Source: Anaerolineae bacterium
Lineage (GTDB): Bacteria; Chloroflexota; Anaerolineae; B4-G1; SLSP01
Length of the DNA stretch: 64,000 bases
NCBI GenBank assembly: GCA_034429475.1
Contig: DAOUGD010000126.1
Location: 32,818-96,817 of the forward strand
Direction of reading: 5' to 3'
Made by a program: the position numbers and the translations under genes. Below the pieces are notes generated by a model that had not been told where the DNA came from, searched no databases, and saw nothing but the letters and a program-made list of their open reading frames with translations. The stretch's first letter is position 1. Every line of letters starts with the position of its first letter. This document shows, piece after piece, positions 4,346 through 60,656 of the stretch.

Positions 4346-4405
4346 TCAACGGATGTAACGGAATTTAACGGATATTTTCTCCGTTTAATCCGTTCAATCC
4401 GTTGA
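4346..4405. repeat. palindromic AACGGAT-unit element, copy A (TCAACGGAT-GTAACGGAAT-TTAACGGAT ... ATCCGTTTAATCCGTTCAATCCGTTGA)
   Basis: A full two-armed copy sits 20 bp upstream of mtnP. Family members are at 21270, 23441, 37805 and 44493. Confidence 0.75.
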
Positions 4406-5294: not shown

Positions 5295-5463
5295 TCCTCT
5301 CTGTGGCGAGCATCCAAGCTGCATGAAAATGCCATTTTTTCGACCTGTTGCGCGCGAATCAACGCTGGACATAAAAACTCCTCAACTCCTGGCGAACTCC
5401 AGGCTTTCGCACTTGTTTGCGGCTTTATCCGGGCGGGCGCGCGGTGCGGACGGCGCTACCCCT

Positions 5464-8055
5464 ATGACTCAGCCGCTCTTGCTCCTGTTGGCCGGGCTGT
5501 TTGTGGCGCTCGGCGGGGCTGCCCTGCACTTCTCTATGCACATTCCCCTTTGGCGGCTGATCATCCTCGGCGGCGGCTGGACGCTGGCCTGGGGCGCAAG
5601 TTTCTGGGTGCTGCGCGCCCGTCTCCCTGACGCCGACCCCTTCATTCTGCCCATCGTCGCGCTGTTGACCGGGTGGGGCTTACTGCTGCAAGCACGCCTG
5701 GCTCCGGCGTTTATGCTGCGCCAGACGCTCTGGCTTCTCATCGGCTGCGGTGCGCTGTGCGGCGTGGCGCTCTATCCCCGGTTGCCGCGCCTGCTGCGCC
5801 GTTACCGCTACTCCTTCCTGGCGGCCGGATTGTTGCTCCTGGGCGCCACCCTGGTCTTTGGCGTGAATCCCTCCGGCTACGGCCAGCAGCTTTGGCTGGG
5901 AGCGTTTGGCGTCTACTTCCAGCCCTCGGAGCTGCTTAAATTGCTCCTGGTGATCTACCTGGCCTCGTACTTGTGCGACCGCCGTGAGGTGCTGGCGCAA
6001 AAGAAGGTACACCATCCCCTGTGGGGCGTTGTCCTTGGTCCGATGTTAGCGATGGTGGGCGTCGCGCTGCTGCTCTTGGGGTGGCAGCAAGACCTGGGCG
6101 CGGCGCTCCTCTTCTACCTGACCTTCGTGGCGATGCTGTACCTGGCCTGGGGAAAAGTCTGGTACGTGGCCCTCAGCCTACTTGTCTTTATCCCGGTGGC
6201 GGTAGCGGGATACTTCATCTCTGACCGTGTGGCGCTGCGGGTGAGCATCTGGCTCGATCCGTGGGCGCCCGCACAGGCCGACCGCGCCTTCCAAATCCTG
6301 CAATCCCTCTTTGCCCTGGCGTCCGGCGGCATCTTCGGGCAGGGATTGGGACAGGGCGCGCCGACGTTGATCCCTGTCGTCCACTCCGATTTTGTCTACG
6401 CCGCCCTGGTGGAGGAGTTCGGTATGCTCGGCGCGTTGGCGCTGCTGGCCTTGATCGGCCTGCTGATCTATCGCGGCCTCCTGTGGGCGCAGCGGGCGGA
6501 GTCGCCGTTTGAAGCGCTGCTGGCCGGCGGCATTGCCGCCATTTGGGGGATTCAAACCTGGGTAATTTTGGGAGGCAATGCCAAACTGATCCCCATCACC
6601 GGCGTGACGCTGCCGTTTGTCAGCTATGGCGGTTCGTCCCTGTTGGTGATGTTGCTGGCCACCGGCTTGCTGCTCAACCTTTCGGCCCCGCATCCGGCGA
6701 CCTTCGCCATCTCCCTGACGCCCGACAAGGCGCCATCCTTGGCGCGCACAGCGGGCCGGTTGGGACAGGGCCTGCTGTTCTTGTTGGTAACTGTGGCGCT
6801 CGATACCGGCTGGTGGGCAGTGCTGCGCAGCGACGACCTGCGCACGTATCTGGCGAACCCCCGCTACATCCTATCCGAGAGCCGGATTCGGCGGGGCCGC
6901 GTCCTGGATCGGGCGGGGGGAACGCTGGCGGACGTTCGCGTAGATGAAGACGGCTACGTCACCCGCGCCTATCCGGCGCCGTCGGCGGCGGCGGTGGTGG
7001 GCTACGCGACGCTCCAATACGGCGCCGCCGGCATAGAAGCCGCCTGTGACTCTCGACTGCGCGGCGACGTGACGCGCACGTCCTGGGATAGAGCGGTGGA
7101 GCAATTGCTGCACCACGATCCCATTGGCGAGGACGTGCGCCTGACGTTGGACGTGCATCTGCAACGCAGCGCGCACCAGCTTCTGGCGGAGTATCAAGGC
7201 GCGGCGGTGATGGTGGATGTGCGCACCGGCGAAATTCTTGCGCTGGCCTCATCGCCGGTGTACACCTCGGCAACGGTGGCCGAGGACTGGGAGACGCTGC
7301 GCGAAGATCCGGCGGCGCCCCTGCTCAACCGCGTCACGCAGGGCTTGGCGCAACCCGGCGCGATTTTGGAGACGGTGCTGCTGGGGAGCGCCTTGGAGCG
7401 CGGCGACTTGCCGACACCCACCCTGCCTTTCACCCAGGCCGTGATTTTCAACGGCGCGACGCTGACCTGCCAGCATCCGCCTGCCGGGGAAGATTGGGCA
7501 GCCGCGCTGACCGCCGCTTGCCCGGCGCCGTTTGTGGCGTTGGGGCAGGATTTGGGCTTACCGGCTCTGGCAGAGAGTTTCGCGGCCTGGGGGCTGACCG
7601 AGGCGCCGGCTTTGGAACTGCCCACCGTTGCCGCGCCCTGGGAGCCGCAAACGGCGGATGTGGCGCGGGAAGCCCTGGGGCAGGGCGCGTTGCTGGTCAC
7701 GCCGTTGCAAATGGTGGGCGTCGCCGCCGCGTTGGGAAATGATGGCGTGCGTCCGCCCTTGCATTTGCTGTCCCGTTCGACGCCCGGCTGTGTCACGCCG
7801 GCGACCAGTGCTGAGCGCATCCTTGCATCGGAGTATGCGGCGCAACTGCGGGCACTGTGGCCGCGTTTTGGCGGGGCCGCCGGTCATCAGGGGCAGTCTT
7901 TAGCCGGCCCGGAGCGTGTGCAGACGTGGTTCATCGGCTTGGATTCGCCGGTGGCGGCGCATTACGCGGTAGCGGTGGTGGTAGAGAACGGCCATGATCC
8001 CCAGGCGGCGGCGCGCATTGGCCTGGCCCTGTTGGAGCAGGGTGTGGTGCCCTAA
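5464..8055 (+). CDS. SEDS (FtsW/RodA/SpoVE) family protein fused to a C-terminal PBP2-like transpeptidase-fold domain
   Basis: The ORF is open from 5323, but GC3 rises from ~55% to ~85% at the MTQ start (5464). The N-terminal half is multi-TM with SEDS motifs (SGGIFGQGLGQG, LPFVSYGGSSLL). The C-terminal half aligns by eye to bPBP (VMVDVRTGEILALASSP, ALGQGALLVTPLQMVGVAAALGNDG). Confidence 0.65.
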   Translation: MTQPLLLLLAGLFVALGGAALHFSMHIPLWRLIILGGGWTLAWGASFWVLRARLPDADPFILPIVALLTGWGLLLQARLAPAFMLRQTLWLLIGCGALCGVALYPRLPRLLRRYRYSFLAAGLLLLGATLVFGVNPSGYGQQLWLGAFGVYFQPSELLKLLLVIYLASYLCDRREVLAQKKVHHPLWGVVLGPMLAMVGVALLLLGWQQDLGAALLFYLTFVAMLYLAWGKVWYVALSLLVFIPVAVAGYFISDRVALRVSIWLDPWAPAQADRAFQILQSLFALASGGIFGQGLGQGAPTLIPVVHSDFVYAALVEEFGMLGALALLALIGLLIYRGLLWAQRAESPFEALLAGGIAAIWGIQTWVILGGNAKLIPITGVTLPFVSYGGSSLLVMLLATGLLLNLSAPHPATFAISLTPDKAPSLARTAGRLGQGLLFLLVTVALDTGWWAVLRSDDLRTYLANPRYILSESRIRRGRVLDRAGGTLADVRVDEDGYVTRAYPAPSAAAVVGYATLQYGAAGIEAACDSRLRGDVTRTSWDRAVEQLLHHDPIGEDVRLTLDVHLQRSAHQLLAEYQGAAVMVDVRTGEILALASSPVYTSATVAEDWETLREDPAAPLLNRVTQGLAQPGAILETVLLGSALERGDLPTPTLPFTQAVIFNGATLTCQHPPAGEDWAAALTAACPAPFVALGQDLGLPALAESFAAWGLTEAPALELPTVAAPWEPQTADVAREALGQGALLVTPLQMVGVAAALGNDGVRPPLHLLSRSTPGCVTPATSAERILASEYAAQLRALWPRFGGAAGHQGQSLAGPERVQTWFIGLDSPVAAHYAVAVVVENGHDPQAAARIGLALLEQGVVP

Positions 8056-14827: not shown

Positions 14828-14949
14828 GGTCCTTCTCCTGTGAACGAGTAAGAAAGTAATGAGTAATGAGAAATGAGTTGTCGGAAACTTGCACTGGTTA
14901 CTCGTTACTCATTACTTATTTCTGATTTCCGTTTGTGACAGCGAATGGC

Positions 14950-18534: not shown

Positions 18535-18561
18535 TGGATCCTCCTGGCGAATGAACGAATC

Positions 18562-18593
18562 AGCGGATCAGCGGATCGGCGGATCAGCGGATC
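18562..18593. repeat. 8-mer tandem repeat (CAGCGGAT x4, one variant)
   Basis: Read directly from the sequence. Confidence 0.6.
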
Positions 18594-18602
18594 AACGCAT
18601 TA

Positions 18603-18762
18603 CTCCCTTCCAAACATCAAAATCCGCAAGTTGGGATAACTACAGGGGAGGAATGCCCTCCCCCATTTGGGGCGGAATGGCGCATGATGCCTCATCTAGT
18701 GCCACCGGTAGTAGTGATTCGACTACGCGAACTTGCGGATTTTGTCCCTTGGAAGGGAGTAT
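18603..18762. repeat. inverted repeat with ~31-bp arms enclosing a ~97-nt GC-rich hairpin-containing core
   Basis: The arms ACTCCCTTCCAAACATCAAAATCCGCAAGTT and AACTTGCGGATTTTGTCCCTTGGAAGGGAGTA are near-perfect reverse complements. Confidence 0.6.
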
Positions 18763-18770
18763 GCACCTAT

Positions 18771-18826
18771 TTCCTACTTCCTACTTCCTACTCCCTACTC
18801 CCTACTCCCTACTTCCTACTTTGACT
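18771..18826. repeat. 7-mer tandem repeat (TACTTCC / TACTCCC x8)
   Basis: Read directly from the sequence. Confidence 0.7.
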
Positions 18827-21173: not shown

Positions 21174-21269
21174 GGTGCCTCCGGCAAGTGTGGTATGGGA
21201 GATGGGGGGAGGGGATGAGGGGGAGAAGCGTTTCCCTTACTTCCTATCTCCCATTTCCTAAATAGAAGC

Positions 21270-21299
21270 TCAACGGATTTAACGGATTCAACGGAAGGA
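21270..21299. repeat. AACGGAT-unit element, copy B (single arm: TCAACGGATTTAACGGATTCAACGGAAGGA)
   Basis: Belongs to the same family as the element at 4346. Confidence 0.6.
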
Positions 21300-23440: not shown

Positions 23441-23494
23441 AGGATTTACGGAATGGTAGGATCAAAAATCCGTTTCAATCCGTTAAATCCGTTG
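23441..23494. repeat. AACGGAT-unit element, copy C
   Basis: The right arm ATCCGTTTCAATCCGTTAAATCCGTTGA is complete; the left arm is degenerate. Confidence 0.65.
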
Positions 23495-29836: not shown

Positions 29837-29845
29837 GACGAACTG

Positions 29846-29902
29846 CGAATTACGAATTACGAATTACGAATTACGAATTGCGAATTGCGAATTGCGAATT
29901 AC
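29846..29902. repeat. 8-mer tandem repeat (CGAATTAC / CGAATTGC x7)
   Basis: Read directly from the sequence. A similar array is at 60582-60646. Confidence 0.7.
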
Positions 29903-29920
29903 GTGCTGAGGTAGGCAACG

Positions 29921-33346: not shown

Positions 33347-33406
33347 GGGGATCAGGGATTAGGGATTGGGGTGGCCCGATCCTTAATTTCTAATCCCCGC
33401 CACTAT
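33347..33406. repeat. GGGATTAGGG palindromic element, copy 1
   Basis: GGGGATCAGGGATTAGGGATTGGGG ... CCTTAATTTCTAATCCCCGCCACTAT. A second copy is at 35950. Confidence 0.65.
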
Positions 33407-35949: not shown

Positions 35950-36005
35950 GGGAATGGGGATTAGGGATTAGGGATTGGGTACCCCCAATCCCTAATCCCC
36001 ACTAT
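35950..36005. repeat. GGGATTAGGG palindromic element, copy 2
   Basis: GGGAATGGGGATTAGGGATTAGGGATTGGGT ... CCCCAATCCCTAATCCCCACTAT. Confidence 0.65.
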
Positions 36006-37792: not shown

Positions 37793-37804
37793 TTGAAGAT
37801 TTTT

Positions 37805-37861
37805 CTCAACGGATTCAACGGATTTGAACGGATTTTTCCGTTAAATTCGTTAAATCCGTTG
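37805..37861. repeat. AACGGAT-unit element, copy D (full, both arms)
   Basis: TCAACGGATTCAACGGATTTGAACGGAT-TTTT-CCGTTAAATTCGTTAAATCCGTTGA. Confidence 0.75.
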
Positions 37862-37884
37862 AGATATTGTTATGGAGGGAGACT

Positions 37885-38847
37885 ATGCGAGTGTTGGTGA
37901 CCGGCGCGGCGGGATTTATCGGAAGTAATCTAGCGGAAACGCTGCTGCGACGCGGCGATACGGTGGTGGGGCTGGATAATTTCTGCGACTATTACAGCCC
38001 GGCGCGCAAACGCGCCAACGCAGCGGTCCTGGCGGCTTATCCTGCCTTTACGCTGCACGAGCTGGACCTGCGCGACGAAGCCGGTGTGGCGCGCGTCATC
38101 GCGGAGGGCGTCTTCGACGCGGTGGCGCACCTGGGCGCGTTGGCGGGTGTGCGCTATTCTATCGAGCGCGCGCCGCTCTACACCGACGTGAACATCCGGG
38201 GCACGGTCAACGTGCTGGAGGGGATGCGCCACGCCGGGACGCCGCACATCGTCTTTGCCTCAACCTCGTCGGTTTATGGCAAGACGGAGCGACTACCTTT
38301 TAAAGAAGACGATCCCCTCGGCCAACCGTTGGCGCCCTATCCGGCCAGTAAAATCGCCGGGGAGTTGATGGGCTACACGTATCACAATCTCTTCAAGCTA
38401 TCCTTCACGGCGGTGCGCTTCTTCAGCGTCTACGGCCCGCGCGGGCGCCCCGATATGATGCCCTACACCATCACCGACAGCATTGTGCATGACAAATCTT
38501 TCAAGCTGTTCAACGCGGGCGAGATGTACCGCGACTGGACCTACGTGGGCGACATCGTCCAGGGCCTCATCGCCGCGCTGGAACGCCCGTTGGATTACAT
38601 CCGCCTGAACCTGGGGCGCGGCGAGCCGGTGCGCATGGCCGACTTCGTCACCCTGGTGGAGAAGCTGGTGGGCAAGTCCGCGCGGATGGAGACGCCGCCC
38701 GCCCCCGCCAGCGAGCCGCCCATCACCTACGCCGACATCACCCTGGCGCGTAATCTGCTCGGCTACGATCCGCACGTCTCCGTAGAAGAAGGGATGACGC
38801 GGTTCTGGGAGTGGTATCAGCGTGAGGCGTTAGGAGTGGCGAGTTAG
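37885..38847 (+). CDS. NAD-dependent epimerase/dehydratase (extended SDR, UDP-sugar 4-epimerase-like)
   Basis: GGAGGGAG RBS, a VLVTGAAGFIGSNL Rossmann motif and YxxxK. Confidence 0.75.
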   Translation: MRVLVTGAAGFIGSNLAETLLRRGDTVVGLDNFCDYYSPARKRANAAVLAAYPAFTLHELDLRDEAGVARVIAEGVFDAVAHLGALAGVRYSIERAPLYTDVNIRGTVNVLEGMRHAGTPHIVFASTSSVYGKTERLPFKEDDPLGQPLAPYPASKIAGELMGYTYHNLFKLSFTAVRFFSVYGPRGRPDMMPYTITDSIVHDKSFKLFNAGEMYRDWTYVGDIVQGLIAALERPLDYIRLNLGRGEPVRMADFVTLVEKLVGKSARMETPPAPASEPPITYADITLARNLLGYDPHVSVEEGMTRFWEWYQREALGVAS

Positions 38848-38884
38848 GAGTTAGTGCTGAGGACTGAGTGTTGAGGACTGAGTC
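38829..38884. repeat. left copy of an inverted repeat flanking the ammonia-lyase gene (coordinates +/-1)
   Basis: GTTAGGAGTGGCGAGTTAGGAG ... GCTGAGGACTGAG. It overlaps the last codons of the epimerase and is followed by 7-8-mer repeats (CGCTGACT / CGCTTTTT) running into the ATG. Confidence 0.6.
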
Positions 38885-38930
38885 TTCGTTGACTCGCTGA
38901 CTCGCTGATTCGCTTTTTCGCTTTTTCGCT

Positions 38931-40469
38931 ATGGAAACGATCATCATCACCGGTGAACATTTGACGATGGAGGATGTGGCCGCCGTGGCGGGGGGGGCGC
39001 GGGCGACGTTGGCGCCTTACGCGGCGGAGGCGATGGCGCGGTCGTGGGCGGGCGTGCAGACGCTCCTGGCGCACGGCGAGATCGCTTACGGGATCACGAC
39101 GGGCTTCGGCGCATTCAAGGGTCGCATCATTCCGCTGCACGAGGTGGCGGCGTTGCAGCGCAATCTGGTGTTGAGCCACGCGGCAGGCGTCGGGCCAGCG
39201 TTGGACGAGCGGACGGTGCGCGCGGTGATTGCGGTGCGTGTCAATACGCTGGCGATGGGCTATTCCGGCATCCGCCCACAGACGGCGGAGGCGCTGCTGG
39301 CGCTGTTGAACGCCGGCGTCACGCCGGTGATTCCGGCGTATGGCTCGCTGGGCGCCAGCGGCGATCTGGCCCCGCTGGCGCATCTCGCGTGCGTCCTCAT
39401 TGGCGAGGGCGAGGCGTGGTATGGCGGCGAGCGACTGCCCGGCGGCGTGGCGCTGCGCCGTGCCGGATTGACGCCGGTGGAACTTGGCGCGAAGGAAGGG
39501 CTGGCCCTGATCAACGGCACGGCGGTGACGACGGCCCTGGGCGCGCTGGTGGAGTTGCGGACCGAGAATCTCATCCGCGCCGCCGACATCGCGGGCGCGC
39601 TCTCGCTGGAGGCGTTGCGCGGCACCGTCGCCGCCTTCGACCCGCGCCTGCACTTCGTCCGCCCGCACCCGCGCCAGGTGGACGCGGCGGCGTACATGCG
39701 GCGCATCCTCGCCGGCAGCACGTTCGTCCGCCCCCACGATCCCCGCGACATTCAGGACGCCTATAGCTTGCGGTGCATCCCCCAGGTTCACGGCGCGGTG
39801 CGCGACACAGTGGCCTATGCGCGCTGGGCGCTGGAAATCGAACTCAACGCGGTGACGGATAATCCGTTGATTTTCTTCGACGCGGAAGGCCGCCCGGAGG
39901 TGCTGTCGGGCGGCAATTTCCACGCCGAGCCGGTAGGGCTGGCGCTGGATTACCTCAAGCTGGGGATGGTGGAACTGGGCAACATCAGCGAGCGGCGCAC
40001 GGCCCGGCTGGTGGACGAGGCGCTGAGCAACGGCCTGCCGCCGTTCCTCACGCGCTACGGTGGGCTGGAAAGCGGCTTTATGCTCGCGCAGTACACGGCG
40101 GCGGCGCTGGCCTCGCAGAACAAGGTGCTGGCGCATCCGGCCACGGCGGACTCGATTCCCACGTCCGCCAATACCGAGGATCACGTCAGCATGGCGACCA
40201 ACGCGGCGCACAACACCCGGCAGGTGGTGGACAACGTCGAGTGCATCGTCGCGGTGGAATTGTTGGCAGCCGCGCAGGGGATTGACTTGCGCCGCGCGCA
40301 GTTAGGGCGGACGGCGCAGTTGGGCAAGGGCACGGCGGTGGCCTACGAAGCCGTGCGCTCCTGCGCGCCCTTCCTGGAACACGACGCCCCGCTCGCGCCG
40401 CTGATCGAATCCGTGCGCGCCCTCATCGCCGGCGGAGAGCTGGTGAAAGCCGTGGACGCGGCGGTGTGA
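38931..40469 (+). CDS. MIO-dependent histidine/aromatic-amino-acid ammonia-lyase
   Basis: GSLGASGDLAPLAHLA carries the Ala-Ser-Gly MIO triad, 512 aa. No hutU or hutI is nearby, so substrate is unassigned. Confidence 0.8.
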   Translation: METIIITGEHLTMEDVAAVAGGARATLAPYAAEAMARSWAGVQTLLAHGEIAYGITTGFGAFKGRIIPLHEVAALQRNLVLSHAAGVGPALDERTVRAVIAVRVNTLAMGYSGIRPQTAEALLALLNAGVTPVIPAYGSLGASGDLAPLAHLACVLIGEGEAWYGGERLPGGVALRRAGLTPVELGAKEGLALINGTAVTTALGALVELRTENLIRAADIAGALSLEALRGTVAAFDPRLHFVRPHPRQVDAAAYMRRILAGSTFVRPHDPRDIQDAYSLRCIPQVHGAVRDTVAYARWALEIELNAVTDNPLIFFDAEGRPEVLSGGNFHAEPVGLALDYLKLGMVELGNISERRTARLVDEALSNGLPPFLTRYGGLESGFMLAQYTAAALASQNKVLAHPATADSIPTSANTEDHVSMATNAAHNTRQVVDNVECIVAVELLAAAQGIDLRRAQLGRTAQLGKGTAVAYEAVRSCAPFLEHDAPLAPLIESVRALIAGGELVKAVDAAV

Positions 40470-40602
40470 AGAGGGGGAGAGGAGGAGAGGAGGAGAGGGG
40501 GAGAGGGGGAGACTCAGTCCTCAGTCCTCAGCACTCAGCACCCCTAACTCGCCACTCCTAACTCCTAACTCCTAACTCCTAACTCCTATTTCCTATTTCG
40601 CT
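40470..40602. repeat. composite repeat block: (GGAGA/GGGGA)n purine array, right inverted-repeat copy (40511-40570), then CTAACTC x5 and CTATTTC x2 heptamers ending at the ATG
   Basis: Read directly from the sequence. Its reverse complement matches the block at 38829-38884. Confidence 0.65.
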
Positions 40603-41586
40603 ATGGACGCTTTAGTAACCGGAGCCACCGGGTGTGTGGGGGCCAACATTGTGGAGGCGCTGCTGGCGCGGGGGTATGGCGTGCGGGCGCTGCGGCGGGC
40701 AACGTCGCGGCTGGACGCGCTGGCGGGCCTGACGCCGGAATGGGCGGTGGGGGACGTGCTGGACGAGTCCGCCCTGCGCGCCGCGATGGACGGCTGCGCG
40801 TGGGTGTTCCACGCGGCGGCGGTGTCGCAATACTGGCGCAGCCACCCCGACGAGATTTATCGCGTCAACGTGACGGGGACGCGCAACGTGCTGTGGGCGG
40901 CGCAGGCGTGCGGCGTGCGCCGGGTGATTTTCACCAGTTCCGTGGCTGTGTTAGGCGTGCCGACGCAGCCGGGGCGAATCCTGGACGAGACGGCGACGTT
41001 CAACCTGCATCCGGCGCAATTCCATTACGGGCACAGCAAGTGGTTGGCCGAGGCGGACGTGCAGCGCGCCGTGGCGCAAGGATTGGACGTCGTCATCGTC
41101 AATCCGGCGTCCGTCATCGGGCAGCGCGATGTGAATTTTGTGGGGGGCGAAATTTTGCGGCTGGTGGCGCGGGGGCTGATGGTCGTCGCGCCGCCCGGCG
41201 CGATGGGGATCGTGGGGGCGCGCGCGGTGGGACTGGGCCACGTCCTGGCGGCGGAGCGGGGGCGCACCGGCGAGCGGTACATCCTCAACGGCGAAAATGT
41301 GCCTCATCGCGCCCTGCTGACGTTGATGGCTGAGGTGACGGGCGCGCGTCCGCCATTGATCACACTGCCGTCGGCGCTGGTGCGTCTGGCGGCGGGGGCG
41401 GTGCGCCTGGCGGGGCGGCTGTGCGGCAAGCCGCTGCCGGTGGACGCGGCGCAGTTGGAGTTGAGCGCGCGGGCGATGTGCTTTGACGGCGGCAAGGCGC
41501 ACCGGGAGTTGGATTTTCCTTTGGTGCCGGCGCGCGCGGCGGTGCAGGAGGCGTGGGACTGGTATGGCGCGCATGGCGGATTGTGA
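40603..41586 (+). CDS. NAD-dependent epimerase/dehydratase family protein (SDR)
   Basis: VTGATGCVGANIV Rossmann motif, 327 aa. Confidence 0.7.
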   Translation: MDALVTGATGCVGANIVEALLARGYGVRALRRATSRLDALAGLTPEWAVGDVLDESALRAAMDGCAWVFHAAAVSQYWRSHPDEIYRVNVTGTRNVLWAAQACGVRRVIFTSSVAVLGVPTQPGRILDETATFNLHPAQFHYGHSKWLAEADVQRAVAQGLDVVIVNPASVIGQRDVNFVGGEILRLVARGLMVVAPPGAMGIVGARAVGLGHVLAAERGRTGERYILNGENVPHRALLTLMAEVTGARPPLITLPSALVRLAAGAVRLAGRLCGKPLPVDAAQLELSARAMCFDGGKAHRELDFPLVPARAAVQEAWDWYGAHGGL

Positions 41587-43238: not shown

Positions 43239-45971
43239 ATGAAAATTCTGCGAGAAAACTTTTTCCGTCAGTGGGCCGCGCCGGTAGGCGTGATGGGGTC
43301 GGCAGTGGCGCTGATCTACCGACGGTTGATCGCTGGTCAGGTGTTGGCCGGCGGCGACTTGCATCTGTATTTTTTCCCCTATTGGATGGCGGCGGCGCGG
43401 TCGTTCCTGGCCGGGAAGCTGCCCCTGTGGACGCCTGATCTGTTTGCGGGGGCGCCACTGCTGGCAAACTCGCAGATCGGCGTATTTTACCCCCTGAACT
43501 GGCCGTTGTGGTGGTTGTCGGGCGGCTCGTTGCTGGGGGTGACGCGCGCCCTGCACATCAGCGTGCTGCTGCATCTGGCGCTGGCGGCGCTGACAGCGTG
43601 TGTGTTGGCCCGGCGGGTGGGCGCTGCACCGTGGGGCGCAGCGCTGGCAGGACTGCTTTATGCCGGCGGCGGTTACCTGGGTCTGCACGTCGAACACTTG
43701 AACCAGTTGCAGGGATTGGCCTGGCTGCCCTTGGTGCTACTGCCGGGGCAAAAGGCGCAGTTTCACGTTTTGCGTTTCACGTTTCACGTTTCATTCCCCT
43801 CGCCTATAAGCATCATCGCCCTGACCCTTATGCTCCTGGCCGGTCACACCCAAATGGCCTTTATGGCCGGCGTCGGCCTTCTTGTCTGGAAAGCGGTGGA
43901 CTGCGGTTTCTGGAGCTTAGGGAATCGTTATTCCGTTTCTCGCGTGTCCTATTCCCTATTTCCTATTTCCTATTTCCTGTCCTTGCTTCCCTATGCCCTG
44001 GCCCCCTTGATCGCCGCCGTGCAACTGTTGCCCACCCTTGAGTTAGCGCAGTTTTCGCTTCGCAGCAGCGGTCTGCCGTGGCGGGAGGCGGTGTCGTTCT
44101 CCATCCGCCCGTGGGATTTGCCGGAAGCGTTGCTGCCGACTTATCTGGTCACGCCGCTGCTGCCGGAAGGTGTCGCCTACCTGGGGCTGGTGGGGATGGC
44201 GTTGGCGGCGTGGGGGGCGTGGCGGGGGCTGCGCCGCCGTGATAGGGACGCTTGGGCGGTGGTTGTGCTGGCCGGGGTGGGGGTGTTCCTGGCTCTGGGC
44301 GCTTACAACCCCCTGTATTTGGCGGCGATACGTCTGGGGATACCGGGCTTGATTCACTTCCGCGCTCCGGCGCGCTTCCTGGTGCTGTACACGCTGGGGA
44401 TGGCGCTGCTGGCCGGGCGTGGTTTCTCTGAGCTGCCGGAATTGTTGGGTGAGCTGCGGGGGCTTCTTTTTCGTCAGCAGATTAGAACGGAAGGCGGGGA
44501 TCAACGGAATACAACAGAAATCCCAAAAATCCGTTCAAATCCGTTCAATCCGTTGATACATTTGATCGGGGGTATCACAATCGTCCTGGCTTGCGTCGAA
44601 CTGTTGATTTCCTCCGCTTCCCTGCCGCACGCCGACGCGACGGCGGCGCGCGCTTACACCGACCTGCGCCCGGCGACCGCGCATCTGGTGGCGGCGACGC
44701 AAGCGGCATTGGCGGGCGAATGGCCGGGACGCTTTCTCAGTATTTCCAAGACGCTTTTCGACGCCGGGGACGAGGTGGACATGACGGCCATTTACGGGGA
44801 CGCGCTTTCGGCGGATGCCCTGTGGCAGTACAAGGTAGCGGCCAAACACCGAGAAGTGCTGTCGCCCAACCTGGCGTTGGCGTTTGGCGTCCCGGCGGCG
44901 GATGGCTACGATGGCGGCCTGCTGCCGTTGCGGCACTACAGCGCTTTCTCGCAGTTGATGTTGCCCGACGGCACGCTGGATGGCCGGCTGCGAGAGAATC
45001 TGACGAGCATCCCGGAAGCGCGCTGGCTTTCCCTGTTGGACGTGCGCTTCGTGATGACCGACAAGACCGGCGATGCCTGGGTGGAGGACGTGTTTTACGA
45101 CCGGCAATTTCAGCCGGCGCTAGCCGCTGACGCGTCGTTGTCGTTGGGATGGTTGCCGGACGATTTCACTGCCGATGCGTTGGGCCTGTTGTATGCCGGT
45201 GCCGGTAACGTCACGTTGACGTTGGGAGATGGGCGCGCGCTCACCGCAACGCTACCGGCTCAGGTGGCCGAGTCGCCGTATCGTGTGCGATGGGTTGCCG
45301 CCGCTCGCGTGACCGGCGTGACCTTGCAGGCCTCCACCCCCGGTTTGACGTTAACCGGCGCCAGTCTGTTAGACGAGCGGGCCGCCGCTTTCTATCCTCT
45401 GACGCTTTCAGCGCATTTCCGGCTGGCTCATTCCGGCGATGTGAAGATTTACGAGGCATTGGCGCCGTCATCCCGCGTATTCTGGACGCCGACCTATACG
45501 TGTGTGGCCGACGATGCGGTGGCGCTGGCGGTGATGCGCGATCCGGCTTTCGATCCGACGACAAACGCGGTCGTGCAGGGCTGTGAGGGCGGCGAGAGCG
45601 TGGCCGAGGAGGGCGGCGCGGCAGACATCCGGCTCATCCGGCGCAGCGCTACCGAGGTGCGGCTGGCCGTTACGACGCCCACGTCCGGCCTGTTGACCCT
45701 GGCTGAGGCGTGGTATCCCGGCTGGCAGGCGCGGGTGACTTCGGAAACGAACGACCTACTGTTCACATCGGTACTACAGGTGGATATTCTCTTTCGCGGG
45801 GTGCGGTTAGGGCCGGGAAACTGGTGGGTTACTTTTGCCTATCGGCCTCACGGATTGTTGGTGGGCGGCTGGCTCAGTTTAGTGGGCATGGCGGGATTCG
45901 GCGGGTATGCCGTGCGCTTGCGGCGAAGGCGCGGGACTGCTGCGTTAGAACCTTCTGACATATCATCGTGA
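43239..45971 (+). CDS. YfhO-family polytopic membrane protein (putative glycosyltransferase)
   Basis: The N-terminal YfhO-like pattern (LYFFPYW ... LWTPDLFAGAPLLANSQIGVFYPLNW) and many TM helices support this. The 910-aa ORF is intact despite three in-frame repeat insertions. Confidence 0.7.
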   Translation: MKILRENFFRQWAAPVGVMGSAVALIYRRLIAGQVLAGGDLHLYFFPYWMAAARSFLAGKLPLWTPDLFAGAPLLANSQIGVFYPLNWPLWWLSGGSLLGVTRALHISVLLHLALAALTACVLARRVGAAPWGAALAGLLYAGGGYLGLHVEHLNQLQGLAWLPLVLLPGQKAQFHVLRFTFHVSFPSPISIIALTLMLLAGHTQMAFMAGVGLLVWKAVDCGFWSLGNRYSVSRVSYSLFPISYFLSLLPYALAPLIAAVQLLPTLELAQFSLRSSGLPWREAVSFSIRPWDLPEALLPTYLVTPLLPEGVAYLGLVGMALAAWGAWRGLRRRDRDAWAVVVLAGVGVFLALGAYNPLYLAAIRLGIPGLIHFRAPARFLVLYTLGMALLAGRGFSELPELLGELRGLLFRQQIRTEGGDQRNTTEIPKIRSNPFNPLIHLIGGITIVLACVELLISSASLPHADATAARAYTDLRPATAHLVAATQAALAGEWPGRFLSISKTLFDAGDEVDMTAIYGDALSADALWQYKVAAKHREVLSPNLALAFGVPAADGYDGGLLPLRHYSAFSQLMLPDGTLDGRLRENLTSIPEARWLSLLDVRFVMTDKTGDAWVEDVFYDRQFQPALAADASLSLGWLPDDFTADALGLLYAGAGNVTLTLGDGRALTATLPAQVAESPYRVRWVAAARVTGVTLQASTPGLTLTGASLLDERAAAFYPLTLSAHFRLAHSGDVKIYEALAPSSRVFWTPTYTCVADDAVALAVMRDPAFDPTTNAVVQGCEGGESVAEEGGAADIRLIRRSATEVRLAVTTPTSGLLTLAEAWYPGWQARVTSETNDLLFTSVLQVDILFRGVRLGPGNWWVTFAYRPHGLLVGGWLSLVGMAGFGGYAVRLRRRRGTAALEPSDISS
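43760..43794. repeat. 7-mer tandem repeat (TTCACGTTT units) inside the YfhO-family CDS
   Basis: Read directly from the sequence. It encodes FHVLRFTFHVSF in-frame. Confidence 0.6.
43947..43982. repeat. 7-mer tandem repeat (CTATTTC x4) inside the YfhO-family CDS
   Basis: It encodes SLFPISYFLS in-frame. The same heptamer occurs in the intergenic block at 40586-40600. Confidence 0.6.
44493..44548. repeat. AACGGAT-unit element, copy E, inserted in-frame in the YfhO-family CDS
   Basis: TCAACGGAATACAACAGAAATCC-CAAAA-ATCCGTTCAAATCCGTTCAATCCGTTGA. It translates as ...DQRNTTEIPKIRSNPFNPLI... Confidence 0.65.
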
Positions 45972-59367: not shown

Positions 59368-60591
59368 ATGGCGACGTGGGGTTGGTTGGTTATCATCGCG
59401 GTAGTGCTGGCGGTGGCTGGCGGCGTGGTGGCGTGGCAGTGGCGGCGCGTTCAGGCGCTGCTGGCCCAACAGCACCTATTGGAACGGCGCATAGCCGAGC
59501 TAATGGACGTCCAGACGACAGAACGGCAGCACTTGACGCAGCAGGCTGAAGCCTTTGCGCAGCGCCTGGAGCGTTTCCGGGCGGCAGCGCTGGTGGCGCG
59601 GGATGCCGCCGCCATTCGTAACTTGGACGAATTGATGCAGGCGTTGGTGACGCTGATCTCGCAGCGCTTCGACTTTTATCATGCCGGGGTGTTCTTGTTG
59701 GATGATGCCGGCGACTTCGCGGTGATGCAGGCGGCGTCATCCGAAGGGGGGCGGCAAATGCTGGCGCGGGGACACAAACTGCGGGTGGCCGAGCAGGGGA
59801 TCGTGGGGTACGTGGCGGCGCGGGGGGAAGCGCGCATTGCCCTGAACGTCGGCGAGGACGCGGCCTGGGCCAGCGCGCCGGAACTGCCGAAAACTCGCTC
59901 AGAGATGGCGCTGCCTTTGAAGGTGCGCGAGCAGGTCATTGGCGTGCTGGACGTGCAGTCTACCGAACCGCAAGCCTTTATCCAGGAGGACATTGAAGTA
60001 CTCCAAACAATGGCCGATCAGTTAGCCTTGGCGATTCAGAGCGCGCGGCTGTTTGAGGAAAACCGGCGCACCGTCGAGCGGTTGGAGATCCTGTACCGGG
60101 AGCAGATGGGGGAAATATGGCGCAGCCGGGTCGGCACGCGCACCTACATCTACGATGGCCTGAACGTCGCGCGCGCGCTGGCGGAGGAGACGCCGGCGTT
60201 GGTCAATAGCCAGCACGTGGTCACGTCACACCAGTTGGTCATCCCGATCTTCCTGCGCGAGCACGTCATCGGTTCGATCACCCTGGAACGCGATCCGATA
60301 CAACTGCCCTGGTCGGATGAAGAGGTGGCGTTGGTGGAAGAGATCGGCGTGCAGGCCGGCCTGGCGCTGGACAATGCACAGTTGTTGGCCGACAGCCGGC
60401 AGCGCGCGACGTACCAGCAGCAGCTCAGCGACGTGTCACGGGTCTTTTCCGGGGCCGTGAACATGGAAGCAATGTTGCAGGCCGCCGTGCGTGAGTTGGG
60501 GCGGCTGCCGGGGGTGGCGGAGGTGGCCGTCCACATTGACGCTCCCCGCGCCGTTGCGAATGACATTGAGCAAGCGGCGAATGACGAATAG
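59368..60591 (+). CDS. single-TM coiled-coil GAF, GAF protein without output domain (paralog 6)
   Basis: N-terminal TM (WGWLVIIAVVLAVAGGVVAW), a coiled coil, GAF (FDFYHAGVFLLDDAGDFAVMQAASS ... LPLKVREQVIGVLDVQS), a second GAF and a C-terminal VRELGRL module. Confidence 0.65.
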   Translation: MATWGWLVIIAVVLAVAGGVVAWQWRRVQALLAQQHLLERRIAELMDVQTTERQHLTQQAEAFAQRLERFRAAALVARDAAAIRNLDELMQALVTLISQRFDFYHAGVFLLDDAGDFAVMQAASSEGGRQMLARGHKLRVAEQGIVGYVAARGEARIALNVGEDAAWASAPELPKTRSEMALPLKVREQVIGVLDVQSTEPQAFIQEDIEVLQTMADQLALAIQSARLFEENRRTVERLEILYREQMGEIWRSRVGTRTYIYDGLNVARALAEETPALVNSQHVVTSHQLVIPIFLREHVIGSITLERDPIQLPWSDEEVALVEEIGVQAGLALDNAQLLADSRQRATYQQQLSDVSRVFSGAVNMEAMLQAAVRELGRLPGVAEVAVHIDAPRAVANDIEQAANDE

Positions 60592-60646
60592 CGAATTACG
60601 AATGACGAATAACGAATTACGAATCACGAATTGTGAATTTCGGATG
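60582..60646. repeat. 8-mer tandem repeat (CGAATNAC variants x8) spanning the stop codon of paralog 6
   Basis: Read directly from the sequence. It belongs to the same family as the array at 29846. Confidence 0.65.
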
Positions 60647-60656
60647 AGGCAGGTCA

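Follow-up and report, generated by a model that had tools for sequence, protein, structure and literature searches.

What does it mean that a single metabolic gene lies between two complementary repeats? The question is raised by the histidine ammonia-lyase gene (hutH) of an uncultured Anaerolineae bacterium, which sits within a 64,000-nucleotide stretch of contig DAOUGD010000126.1, referred to throughout as the window. An earlier note made from the letters alone had suggested that the repeats either pair in a read-through transcript and so isolate the hutH cistron, or mark a cassette capable of inversion or excision. The explanation that fits best, and in which we place about as much belief as doubt, is that the spacers on either side of hutH are two adjacent members of a family of 7-8-nt tandem arrays dispersed over the gene spacers and some protein loops of this uncultured lineage. 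The inverted repeat (IR) around hutH is probably a translation or RNA-structure element, not a movable cassette.

Tandem arrays fill both spacers around hutH

Three co-directional genes are concerned, separated by spacers of 83 nt (E1-hutH) and 133 nt (hutH-E2):

37885-38847, + strand: E1, NAD-dependent sugar epimerase/dehydratase of the SDR family (Pfam PF01370/PF16363)
38931-40469, + strand: hutH, histidine ammonia-lyase, 512 aa (PF00221, 635 bits; TIGR01225, 636 bits against a cut-off of 539)
40603-41586, + strand: E2, HpnA-like SDR protein, 327 aa (Pfam and NCBIfam)

E1 starts at ATG 37885, which is preceded by a GGAGG Shine-Dalgarno (SD) sequence and agrees with the Joint Genome Institute gene call. 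Both hutH and E2 begin at TTTCGCT-ATGGA, within a 15-nt direct repeat (D4) identical at 14 of 15 positions, and neither GGAG nor GAGG was found 3-14 nt upstream of either start; across the window, approximately 22 of 32 genes have an SD at a plausible start. The hutH start is fixed by a family model that aligns from residue 1, and that of E2 by the HpnA-like model, which aligns from residue 2. The earlier description of SD-less starts abutted by arrays is therefore correct for both genes, and the arrangement recurs in the clade. Pairing between the leaders and 16S rRNA, in the manner of the T7 epsilon enhancer UUAACUUUA, was considered and not adopted.

Both spacers are made wholly of 7-8-nt tandem arrays of 2.7-6.6 copies, as detected by Tandem Repeats Finder (TRF), in line with what had been read from the sequence by eye, and the units drift gradually along each array. 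In the upstream spacer TRF places arrays at 38825-38854 (period 7), 38857-38882 (7), and 38886-38914 together with 38909-38930 (8). In the downstream spacer they lie at 40470-40512 (8, 5.4 copies), 40513-40531 (7), 40543-40588 (7, 6.6 copies) and 40584-40604 (7). The array ends sit at TRF offsets of 0 and -2 nt from the ATGs of hutH and E2. The arrays are as follows:

38825-38854, + strand: array A, (GTTAGGA / GTGGCGA) heptamers, purine-rich with an SD-like AGGAG core per unit (TRF; IR pair I4; minus-strand copy of the exact 19-mer); it makes up the outer half of the upstream IR arm and, in the local hairpin, the 5' arm
38857-38882, + strand: array B, (CTGAGGA / CTGAGTG) heptamers (TRF; IR pair I5); it makes up the inner half of the upstream IR arm and, in the local hairpin, the apical part
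38886-38930, + strand: array C, (TCGCTGAC)/(TTCGCTTT) octamers in that order (TRF; RNA fold); pyrimidine-rich SD-less leader flush with the hutH ATG, and 3' arm of the local hairpin through G-U wobble pairing with A
40470-40512, + strand: array P, polypurine octamers (AGAGGGGG/AGAGGAGG), 5.4 copies (TRF), directly after the hutH stop and with many GGAGG motifs
40510-40541, + strand: array B', (CTCAGTC/CTCAGCA) heptamers, the reverse complement of B (IR pair I5, 32 nt at 84%); inner half of the downstream IR arm
40543-40602, + strand: arrays A' (CCTAACT / CGCCACT), the reverse complement of A, and then T (TCCTATT), heptamers (TRF; IR pair I4, 30 nt at 90%); together a G-poor SD-less leader flush with the E2 ATG

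The repeat of about 55 bp that had been reported around the ammonia-lyase gene is present at this position as an imperfect repeat in two halves. A repeat search pairs 38822-38851 with 40540-40569 (30 nt, 90% complementary) and 38854-38885 with 40510-40541 (32 nt, 84%); as a 4-nt indel lies between the halves, an ungapped comparison over 56 nt matches at only 71%. The 19-mer CTAACTCGCCACTCCTAAC occurs exactly at 40544-40562 on the + strand and at 38829-38847 on the minus strand. No A or B unit types were found elsewhere in the 64-kb window, and none of 100 shuffles reached the counts seen at the locus. The reported overlap with the end of the upstream epimerase was likewise confirmed: array A supplies the last six codons of E1 and its TAG stop, the protein ending in ...WYQREALGVAS*, i.e. 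TRFWEWYQREALGVAS*.

Each spacer has the layout usual for the family, running from a stop codon through a purine-rich arm with SD-like AGGAG/GGAGG motifs to a pyrimidine-rich, G-poor arm flush with the next ATG, where it replaces the SD. The IR around hutH exists because the purine arm of the first spacer (A, B) and the pyrimidine arm of the second (B', A') are built from shared unit families that run in opposite directions. An IR would arise from any two elements of one family with such a palindromic design, and hutH would not thereby be marked as a cassette.

The arrays belong to a dispersed family

For periods of 6-12, the window and its closest relatives carry 0.6-1.5 arrays per kb, versus approximately 0.05-0.2 per kb in distant taxa. 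The window holds 39 of them, with up to 9.4 copies and many different unit families, and about 27 lie in spacers, which make up around one tenth of the DNA; the exceptions are GC-rich coding repeats and the loops of one membrane protein. Many consist of an array followed by its own reverse complement, i.e. local hairpins. The arrays flanking hutH share the defining features of a dispersed heptamer-type class, namely tandem units, many unlinked loci and a preference for spacers. The A' 19-mer is found exactly at no fewer than eight (at least 8) other unrelated loci in metagenome Ga0116144, which contains a sister lineage of the window (described below), and units B and C are present at other loci too. 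Hairpins with A units are predicted elsewhere at L089 (-70.5 kcal/mol, z = -10), L093 (-54.1, z = -6.8) and L090 (-48.5, z = -5.0), and A-unit arrays lie flush with SD-less ATGs in L084 and L093. Flush SD-less arrays recur in L006, L007, L009, L020, L043, L050, L085 and others.

One further unit family was seen at such starts. In L006, L007, L020, L043 and L050, whose hutH is 84-87% identical to that of the window, E2 has (TTCGCTGATTCTTGA)n-type arrays flush with its ATG and no SD, and the large membrane protein in those lineages (L007 14414; L043 7672) is preceded by reverse-type (GAATCAGC)n arrays. The association of SD-less starts with the TCGCTGA unit family is therefore a recurrent one.

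Counted over all loci, array pairs that share units and lie at least 300 nt apart were inverted in 17 cases and direct in 17, and unit sharing among array pairs of the window was 2.9% for near and 3.3% for far pairs; the orientation and sharing statistics rest on scattered loci totalling ~1.3 Mb and not on a complete genome. As orientation and proximity of unit-sharing arrays appear random, an inverted pair in adjacent spacers is expected without any gene-specific cause.

Gene order and assemblies speak against a cassette

A single gene between inverted repeats, with the direct repeat D4 at both spacer ends, does recall a DNA-level cassette in which the IRs would be recombination sites that invert hutH as an on/off switch or mobilise it, in the manner of an inverton, a pair of miniature inverted-repeat transposable elements (MITEs) or a composite transposon. 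We consider this extremely unlikely, and the reading is largely refuted already by the position of hutH in relatives, by the gene content of the region and by independent assemblies.

E2 is the conserved downstream partner of hutH in the clade, the two being adjacent in 21 of 33 genomes, and in 13 of the 21 the spacer measures -11 to 20 nt, usually with an SD. Only in the window, L004, L006, L043, L050 and L027 does this spacer hold 72-202 nt of SD-less arrays, and the array units in the four lineages beyond the window and its sister differ from those of the window. In L007 the spacer is 305 nt long and SD-less, its last ~45 nt being an array flush with the ATG. E1 and hutH are adjacent in five distant relatives, with a very short spacer in two (L010, L016) and longer spacers without arrays in the other three. 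Since hutH has the same neighbours in relatives without the repeats, gene order predates the repeats; judged by these sequence comparisons, the hutH-E2 order is ancestral and the arrays are a later addition. What lies upstream of hutH varies among relatives (L005-L033): RecJ directly, E1, a different upstream gene or others. It therefore appears to be E1, not hutH, that was gained or lost between RecJ and hutH. Insertion of hutH into the loop of an older hairpin element was also considered and rejected, as both E1-hutH-E2 and hutH-E2 with short SD spacers exist in distant relatives.

Gene calls extending 10 kb either side contain no recombinase, invertase, integrase or transposase, and no recombinase or transposase was found among the window genes scanned against Pfam. 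In 12 of 12 independent assemblies (5 window-type and 7 sister-type, from at least 10 samples) hutH is co-directional with its neighbours, in one orientation with identical junctions; no inversion or excision junction occurs among these, which are assembled contigs and not raw reads. The arms are exactly matched over only 19-20 nt and otherwise 84-90% alike with an indel, the upstream arm belongs to the E1 coding sequence, and no target-site duplication is visible flanking the arms. Like invertons, the locus has IRs flanking a DNA segment. Unlike them, it has neither a nearby site-specific recombinase or invertase nor a second orientation, the segment is a conserved housekeeping-type gene in place of a promoter, and the IR units are dispersed. 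Nor does it show, around its inverted repeats, the target-site duplication by which transposons and MITEs are recognised, or an empty site in relatives, where hutH is present although the repeats are not. The proposal of an inversion or excision cassette thus finds no support. The same applies to the suggestion that repeat length tunes expression, as spacer copy number is invariant among the 5 window-type and among the 7 sister-type assemblies; between the two lineages there are substitutions or unit swaps and a single length difference of 7 nt.

A possible rearranged junction in L095 (contig Ga0311022_10336699, 11567-11636) was treated as a probable assembly chimera. Within the polypurine array, 27 nt past the hutH stop, this contig ceases to follow the window, and its last 70 nt match no other compared locus. 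The 3' end of the L003 contig is Illumina adapter (AGATCGGAAGAG), and assemblies tend to break or turn chimeric at the arrays, as in L095 and L003.

A local hairpin and a long-range helix are both predicted

Two RNA structures involving the upstream spacer were predicted:

38819-38930, + strand: predicted local RNA hairpin of the E1-hutH spacer (minimum free energy (MFE) -53.9 kcal/mol, z = -5.3 against shuffles)
38806-38927, + strand: 5' strand of a predicted long-range helix with partner 40468-40588 (MFE and ensemble, 1841-nt read-through RNA)

The local hairpin comprises 44 pairs, 9 of them G-U. Its 5' arm contains the E1 stop (38845-38847), and its stem extends to 1 nt before the hutH AUG. 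The sister lineage is predicted to form the same stem at -54.4 kcal/mol, with three changes, all at unpaired positions. A hairpin that holds both the E1 stop and the hutH leader suggests translational coupling by unmasking, insofar as the predicted fold is a guide. With the anatomy, unit dispersal, ancestral gene order, predicted energies and sequence conservation as its observed basis, the mechanism that we propose is as follows. The spacers would be transcribed within one operon mRNA as intercistronic elements. In this mRNA the upstream hairpin would bury the SD-less hutH leader, with the purine-rich SD-like arm acting as the mask; ribosomes that finish E1 at its stop within the 5' arm would open the hairpin and free the leader. 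Translation of hutH would thereby stay coupled to E1, and the coupling given by short or overlapping junctions in relatives would be preserved. The unstructured pyrimidine-rich leaders may support SD-independent initiation of hutH and E2, either of a ribosomal protein S1 type or by re-initiation, and pairing between the two spacers may be a secondary conformation.

The opposite strand of the upstream spacer folds with only -26.4 kcal/mol. The + strand of the window is G- and T-rich throughout (GC skew +0.06, AT skew -0.07), and G-U-dependent hairpins at 14855-14916 and 21195-21260 are likewise far more stable on the + strand, even where the surrounding genes are on the minus strand. The pattern suggests that a mutational bias linked to the replication strand shapes the arrays.

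The two spacers are also predicted to pair strongly with each other. The long-range helix has 87-97 pairs (87 expected in the ensemble), the extended helix containing 49 GC, 35 AU and 13 GU pairs, and the 1841-nt RNA reaches -947 kcal/mol versus -888 with pairs limited to a 300-nt span (-942 versus -885 kcal/mol in the sister lineage, whose hutH is 5% diverged). Among 650 spacer pairings in the window, the pair flanking hutH gives the strongest predicted RNA duplex, and segments A and A' are invariant between the lineages. These results would favour a functional helix in which the spacers pair over ~90 bp and loop out the 1.5-kb hutH cistron with its start and stop codons at the base, serving in RNase III-type processing, in insulation of hutH or in coupling E1 to E2 translation. 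On balance we judge such a helix physically plausible but unlikely. Native and swapped arm duplexes between the lineages come to -130.1, -125.3, -126.8 and -129.2; swapped arms are as stable as native ones, so there is no covariation signal, and no compensatory change is seen between the two lineages carrying the helix, the only two available. Changes in B/B' and in the polypurine segment that pairs with C are uncompensated and come at near-neutral rates. The local partner of the upstream arm (-53.9 kcal/mol) is transcribed 1.6 kb earlier, and ribosomes ending E1 at 38847 traverse the 5' strand. The exact match of the helix ends to the boundaries of the hutH open reading frame (ORF) simply follows from arrays that fill whole spacers. 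Finally, array pairs of one family that span genes show no preference for inverted over direct orientation, and the usual form of the family is the local hairpin.

Of the long-range stem that the earlier note had envisaged, the predicted pairing thus stands, in the window and in its sister, and the case for its use is weakened by the want of compensatory change and by a strong, earlier-transcribed local partner of the upstream arm. A long-range regulatory conformation of the two spacers is, in our estimate, rather improbable. Somewhat less probable still is the specific version in which a conserved helix of ~90 bp circularises the hutH cistron within a polycistronic mRNA and brings its start and stop codons side by side. 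If true, this would allow ribosome recycling on one cistron, and the SD-less E2 leader would be exposed only as ribosomes finishing E1 melt the 5' strand; such a long-range translational switch built from arrays would have no described bacterial counterpart. The nearest parallel to the stem of the earlier note is provided by the processing stalks of rRNA operons (16S/23S, RNase III), which similarly have complementary flanks 1.5 kb apart with one gene product in the loop. Those stalks show covariation and enclose untranslated RNA, whereas here the loop is a translated ORF, ribosomes cross part of the 5' strand and no covariation is seen.

Strong hairpins right after stop codons, with U-rich runs 3' of the inner stem of the upstream hairpin, might instead act in transcription or mRNA stability. 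Repetitive extragenic palindromic (REP) elements of enterobacteria act as mRNA stabilisers or attenuators, and the spacers could be 3' stabilisers akin to REPs or bacterial interspersed mosaic elements (BIMEs), or weak terminators or attenuators, that set the ratios of E1, hutH and E2 message. We hold this to be quite improbable. A consensus scan for promoters and terminators returned nothing in either spacer, which set aside intrinsic terminators there. The U runs sit in the outer stem and not in a free tail, and neither the arrays abutting SD-less ATGs nor the top conservation of the ATG-proximal leaders would be explained. Leaderless mRNAs from promoters within the arrays were also unsupported, the consensus scan being empty and no well-placed -10-like hexamer being seen by eye. 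Rfam 15 gave no gathering-score matches in the window, only sub-threshold miRNA-hairpin noise at 37.8 kb.

Leaders next to the start codons are the most conserved

The window sequence was recovered identically in four or five metagenome assemblies, and a sister lineage, with hutH DNA 94.9% identical to that of the window, in seven. Dozens of Anaerolineae metagenome-assembled genomes encode hutH proteins 77-87% identical to the window's. The protein collection offers no lineage between these degrees of divergence: its 90% cluster contains only 3 sequences, and the next match is 87% identical. Between the window and its sister, divergence is distributed as follows:

Fourfold-degenerate sites of the five genes from RecJ to TPR: 11-44% diverged (hutH 11%, E1 19%, E2 18%, RecJ 26%, TPR 44%)
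RecJ-E1 spacer: 4.3% diverged (4/92)
E1-hutH spacer: 3.6% diverged (3/83)
Array C (hutH leader): 0/47 changes
hutH-E2 spacer, pyrimidine-rich half: 5.4% diverged
Array B': ~4 changes in 32 nt, uncompensated
Array P: ~11 mismatches (about a quarter of positions) and a 7-nt indel, the most variable segment
Arrays A' and T (E2 leader): ~1 substitution in ~60 nt

Constraint on the E1-hutH spacer has P ~0.002-0.02 by a Poisson estimate, and all three of its substitutions lie in array B or at its edge, unpaired in the local fold. The best-conserved parts of the spacers are the leaders adjoining both ATGs (0/47 and ~1/60). As far as two lineages can indicate, this pattern fits constraint on the upstream local hairpin and on the ATG-proximal leaders, and agrees less with a helix dependent on B:B' and C:P pairing.

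The same comparison bears on whether the arrays are a non-functional by-product, i.e. selfish or mutational debris from slippage, template switching and conversion that is tolerated, with IR, hairpins and SD loss having no role. Gradual drift of units and swaps of neighbouring units between lineages (TG/GA double changes) are what slippage or conversion would give. Arrays have entered the variable loops of a 910-aa membrane protein as well, unit families are many, and the G-U asymmetry tracks the composition skew of the strand and not gene orientation. However, the spacers are 3-5 times less diverged than adjacent fourfold-degenerate sites, and least so right before the ATGs. Array lengths are identical in 5 + 7 independent assemblies, unlike those of unstable microsatellites, and two conserved enzymes rely on these leaders after loss of the ancestral SD or overlap. 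A wholly functionless origin therefore seems unlikely to us, about on a par with the functional helix.

Several points weigh against a dispersed array element that couples hutH to E1 through a local hairpin. Transcription on one mRNA, formation of the hairpin, coupling and the mode of initiation are all things that we infer. The strand asymmetry of the upstream hairpin (-53.9 versus -26.4) is withdrawn as proof of selection at the RNA level, since it is confounded by the G+T skew of the + strand and the same bias towards that strand is seen between minus-strand genes. The local hairpin of the downstream spacer is weak (z = -2.4 in the window, -1.5 in L004), and the local-hairpin logic therefore fits hutH better than E2. 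Compared with the two local hairpins, the inter-spacer helix is favoured by ~59 kcal/mol, so that a purely incidental IR is unproven. Gene conversion between copies of the arrays, in place of purifying selection, could account for the low spacer divergence, and the scattered sampling behind the orientation counts weighs on the same side. A local hairpin that juxtaposes stop and start was also rejected as a rule for hutH-E2 spacers: z is -7.2 in L027 and a modest -2.4 in the window, and the signal is weak in L004, L006, L043 and L050.

Relation to known repeat systems

TAACTGA heptamers end a few nt before SD-less starts in Beggiatoaceae, cyanobacteria and Bacteroidetes; their mechanism is unknown, binding of S1, Csp or CsrA has been proposed, and BOGUAY offers one inverted case among 170 sets (MacGregor 2015, PMC4679880). 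The arrays described here are similarly tandem heptamers, mostly intergenic, found at many loci of filamentous hosts and ending near SD-less starts, and in both systems some overlap the end of the upstream ORF and a few lie inside ORFs. The units bear a resemblance only (TAACTGA against CTAACTC and GGACTGA), exact TAACTGA being absent here, where the units are CTAACTC, CTGAGGA, TCGCTGAC, TTCGCTTT, AGAGGGGG and TCCTATT. Unlike the TAACTGA repeats, the present arrays comprise many 7- and 8-mer unit families, combine purine with complementary pyrimidine arms as long hairpins, and occur in the phylum Chloroflexota.

Quadruplex-type GGGNATC heptamers of cyanobacteria and Xanthomonas lie near ORF ends and are transcribed, and the loci neighbouring them are stable (Rehm 2015, PMC4692102). 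As with these, heptamers here are enriched between co-directional ORFs, within ~50 bp of a stop or start, and a GGGATTA array of the window fits the G3N4 motif; the arrays flanking hutH differ in not being G-tract repeats. The short tandemly repeated repetitive (STRR) heptamers of cyanobacteria invite the same comparison. Within the Chloroflexota, (GATAGRA)n heptamer satellites are scattered in Chloroflexus aurantiacus and have been read as transposed non-coding satellites (Subirana and Messeguer 2019, PMC6749651). Both cases concern dispersed, species-specific families of heptamer satellites in one phylum. The classes (Anaerolineae versus Chloroflexia) and the units differ, and no connection with start codons, loss of the SD or hairpin pairing is reported in that survey.

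REP and BIME elements are single palindromes of 20-40 nt accompanied by a RAYT transposase (REP-associated tyrosine transposase), are not tandem and do not replace ribosome-binding sites. The present elements resemble them as dispersed, imperfect intercistronic palindromes, transcribed with operons and forming hairpins just after stops; no RAYT-like gene was seen in the window. A literature search found no paper on such arrays in Anaerolineae.

The hutH-E2 junction provides a before-and-after series, being tightly coupled in most relatives, where the genes overlap or lie no more than 10 nt apart and an SD is present, and filled with 70-200 nt of arrays without an SD in several Anaerolineae. 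Both enzymes are retained, and their new leaders conserved, after the filling. The function of heptamer-type arrays before SD-less genes thereby becomes testable with simple reporters, and the phenomenon of SD-less arrays, described in Beggiatoaceae, cyanobacteria and Bacteroidetes, gains a further filamentous phylum. When such genomes are annotated, IRs around genes should not be taken as boundaries of mobile elements.

Other arrays and features of the window

The 910-aa membrane protein mentioned above (window 43239-45971) has no Pfam or NCBIfam match and contains in-frame heptamer and decamer arrays at 43760-43793, 43947-43978 and 44527-44554. Their units (GTTTCAC, TCCTATT and AAATCCGTTC) are families also found in spacers, and the arrays fall in loops that are hypervariable among orthologues (L004, L006, L007, L043). 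The arrays therefore also remodel coding sequence.

A (TCAACGGAT)n / (ATCCGTTGA)n family occupies five sites of the window: 4348-4403, 21270-21295, 23466-23493, 37806-37860 and 44527-44554. At 4348-4403 and 37806-37860 both orientations share one spacer and give a near-perfect local hairpin, e.g. that of 37804-37864 (-36 kcal/mol, z = -6.2). The downstream starts examined for this family (4428, 37885) have a normal SD. Long arrays of (ACGAATT)9.4 and (CGAATNA)~10, at 29838-29903 and 60578-60647, begin at or inside the stop region of the upstream gene. Both are followed by a normal SD, so not all families replace the ribosome-binding site.

Hairpins of (GGGATTA)3 followed by (TAATCCC)3 occur in two spacers 2.6 kb apart (33348-33400 and 35957-36001); their GGGATTA arm also fits the G3N4 quadruplex motif, like the GGGNATC repeats of Xanthomonas and Nostoc. 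At 18559-18821, a predicted stem of 30-odd pairs (~18597-18632 with 18731-18765) encloses ~100 nt of structured sequence and is flanked by (ATCAGCGG)4.5 and (CCTACTT)8 arrays. The gene to the left of this spacer is on the minus strand, and the region has no Rfam match; it may represent an RNA that has escaped annotation, or else a composite repeat element of larger size. Elsewhere, window 5323-8055 is one 910-aa ORF in which FtsW/RodA/SpoVE (SEDS; shape, elongation, division and sporulation), penicillin-binding protein (PBP) dimerisation and transpeptidase domains are joined, i.e. a fused SEDS/class-B PBP.

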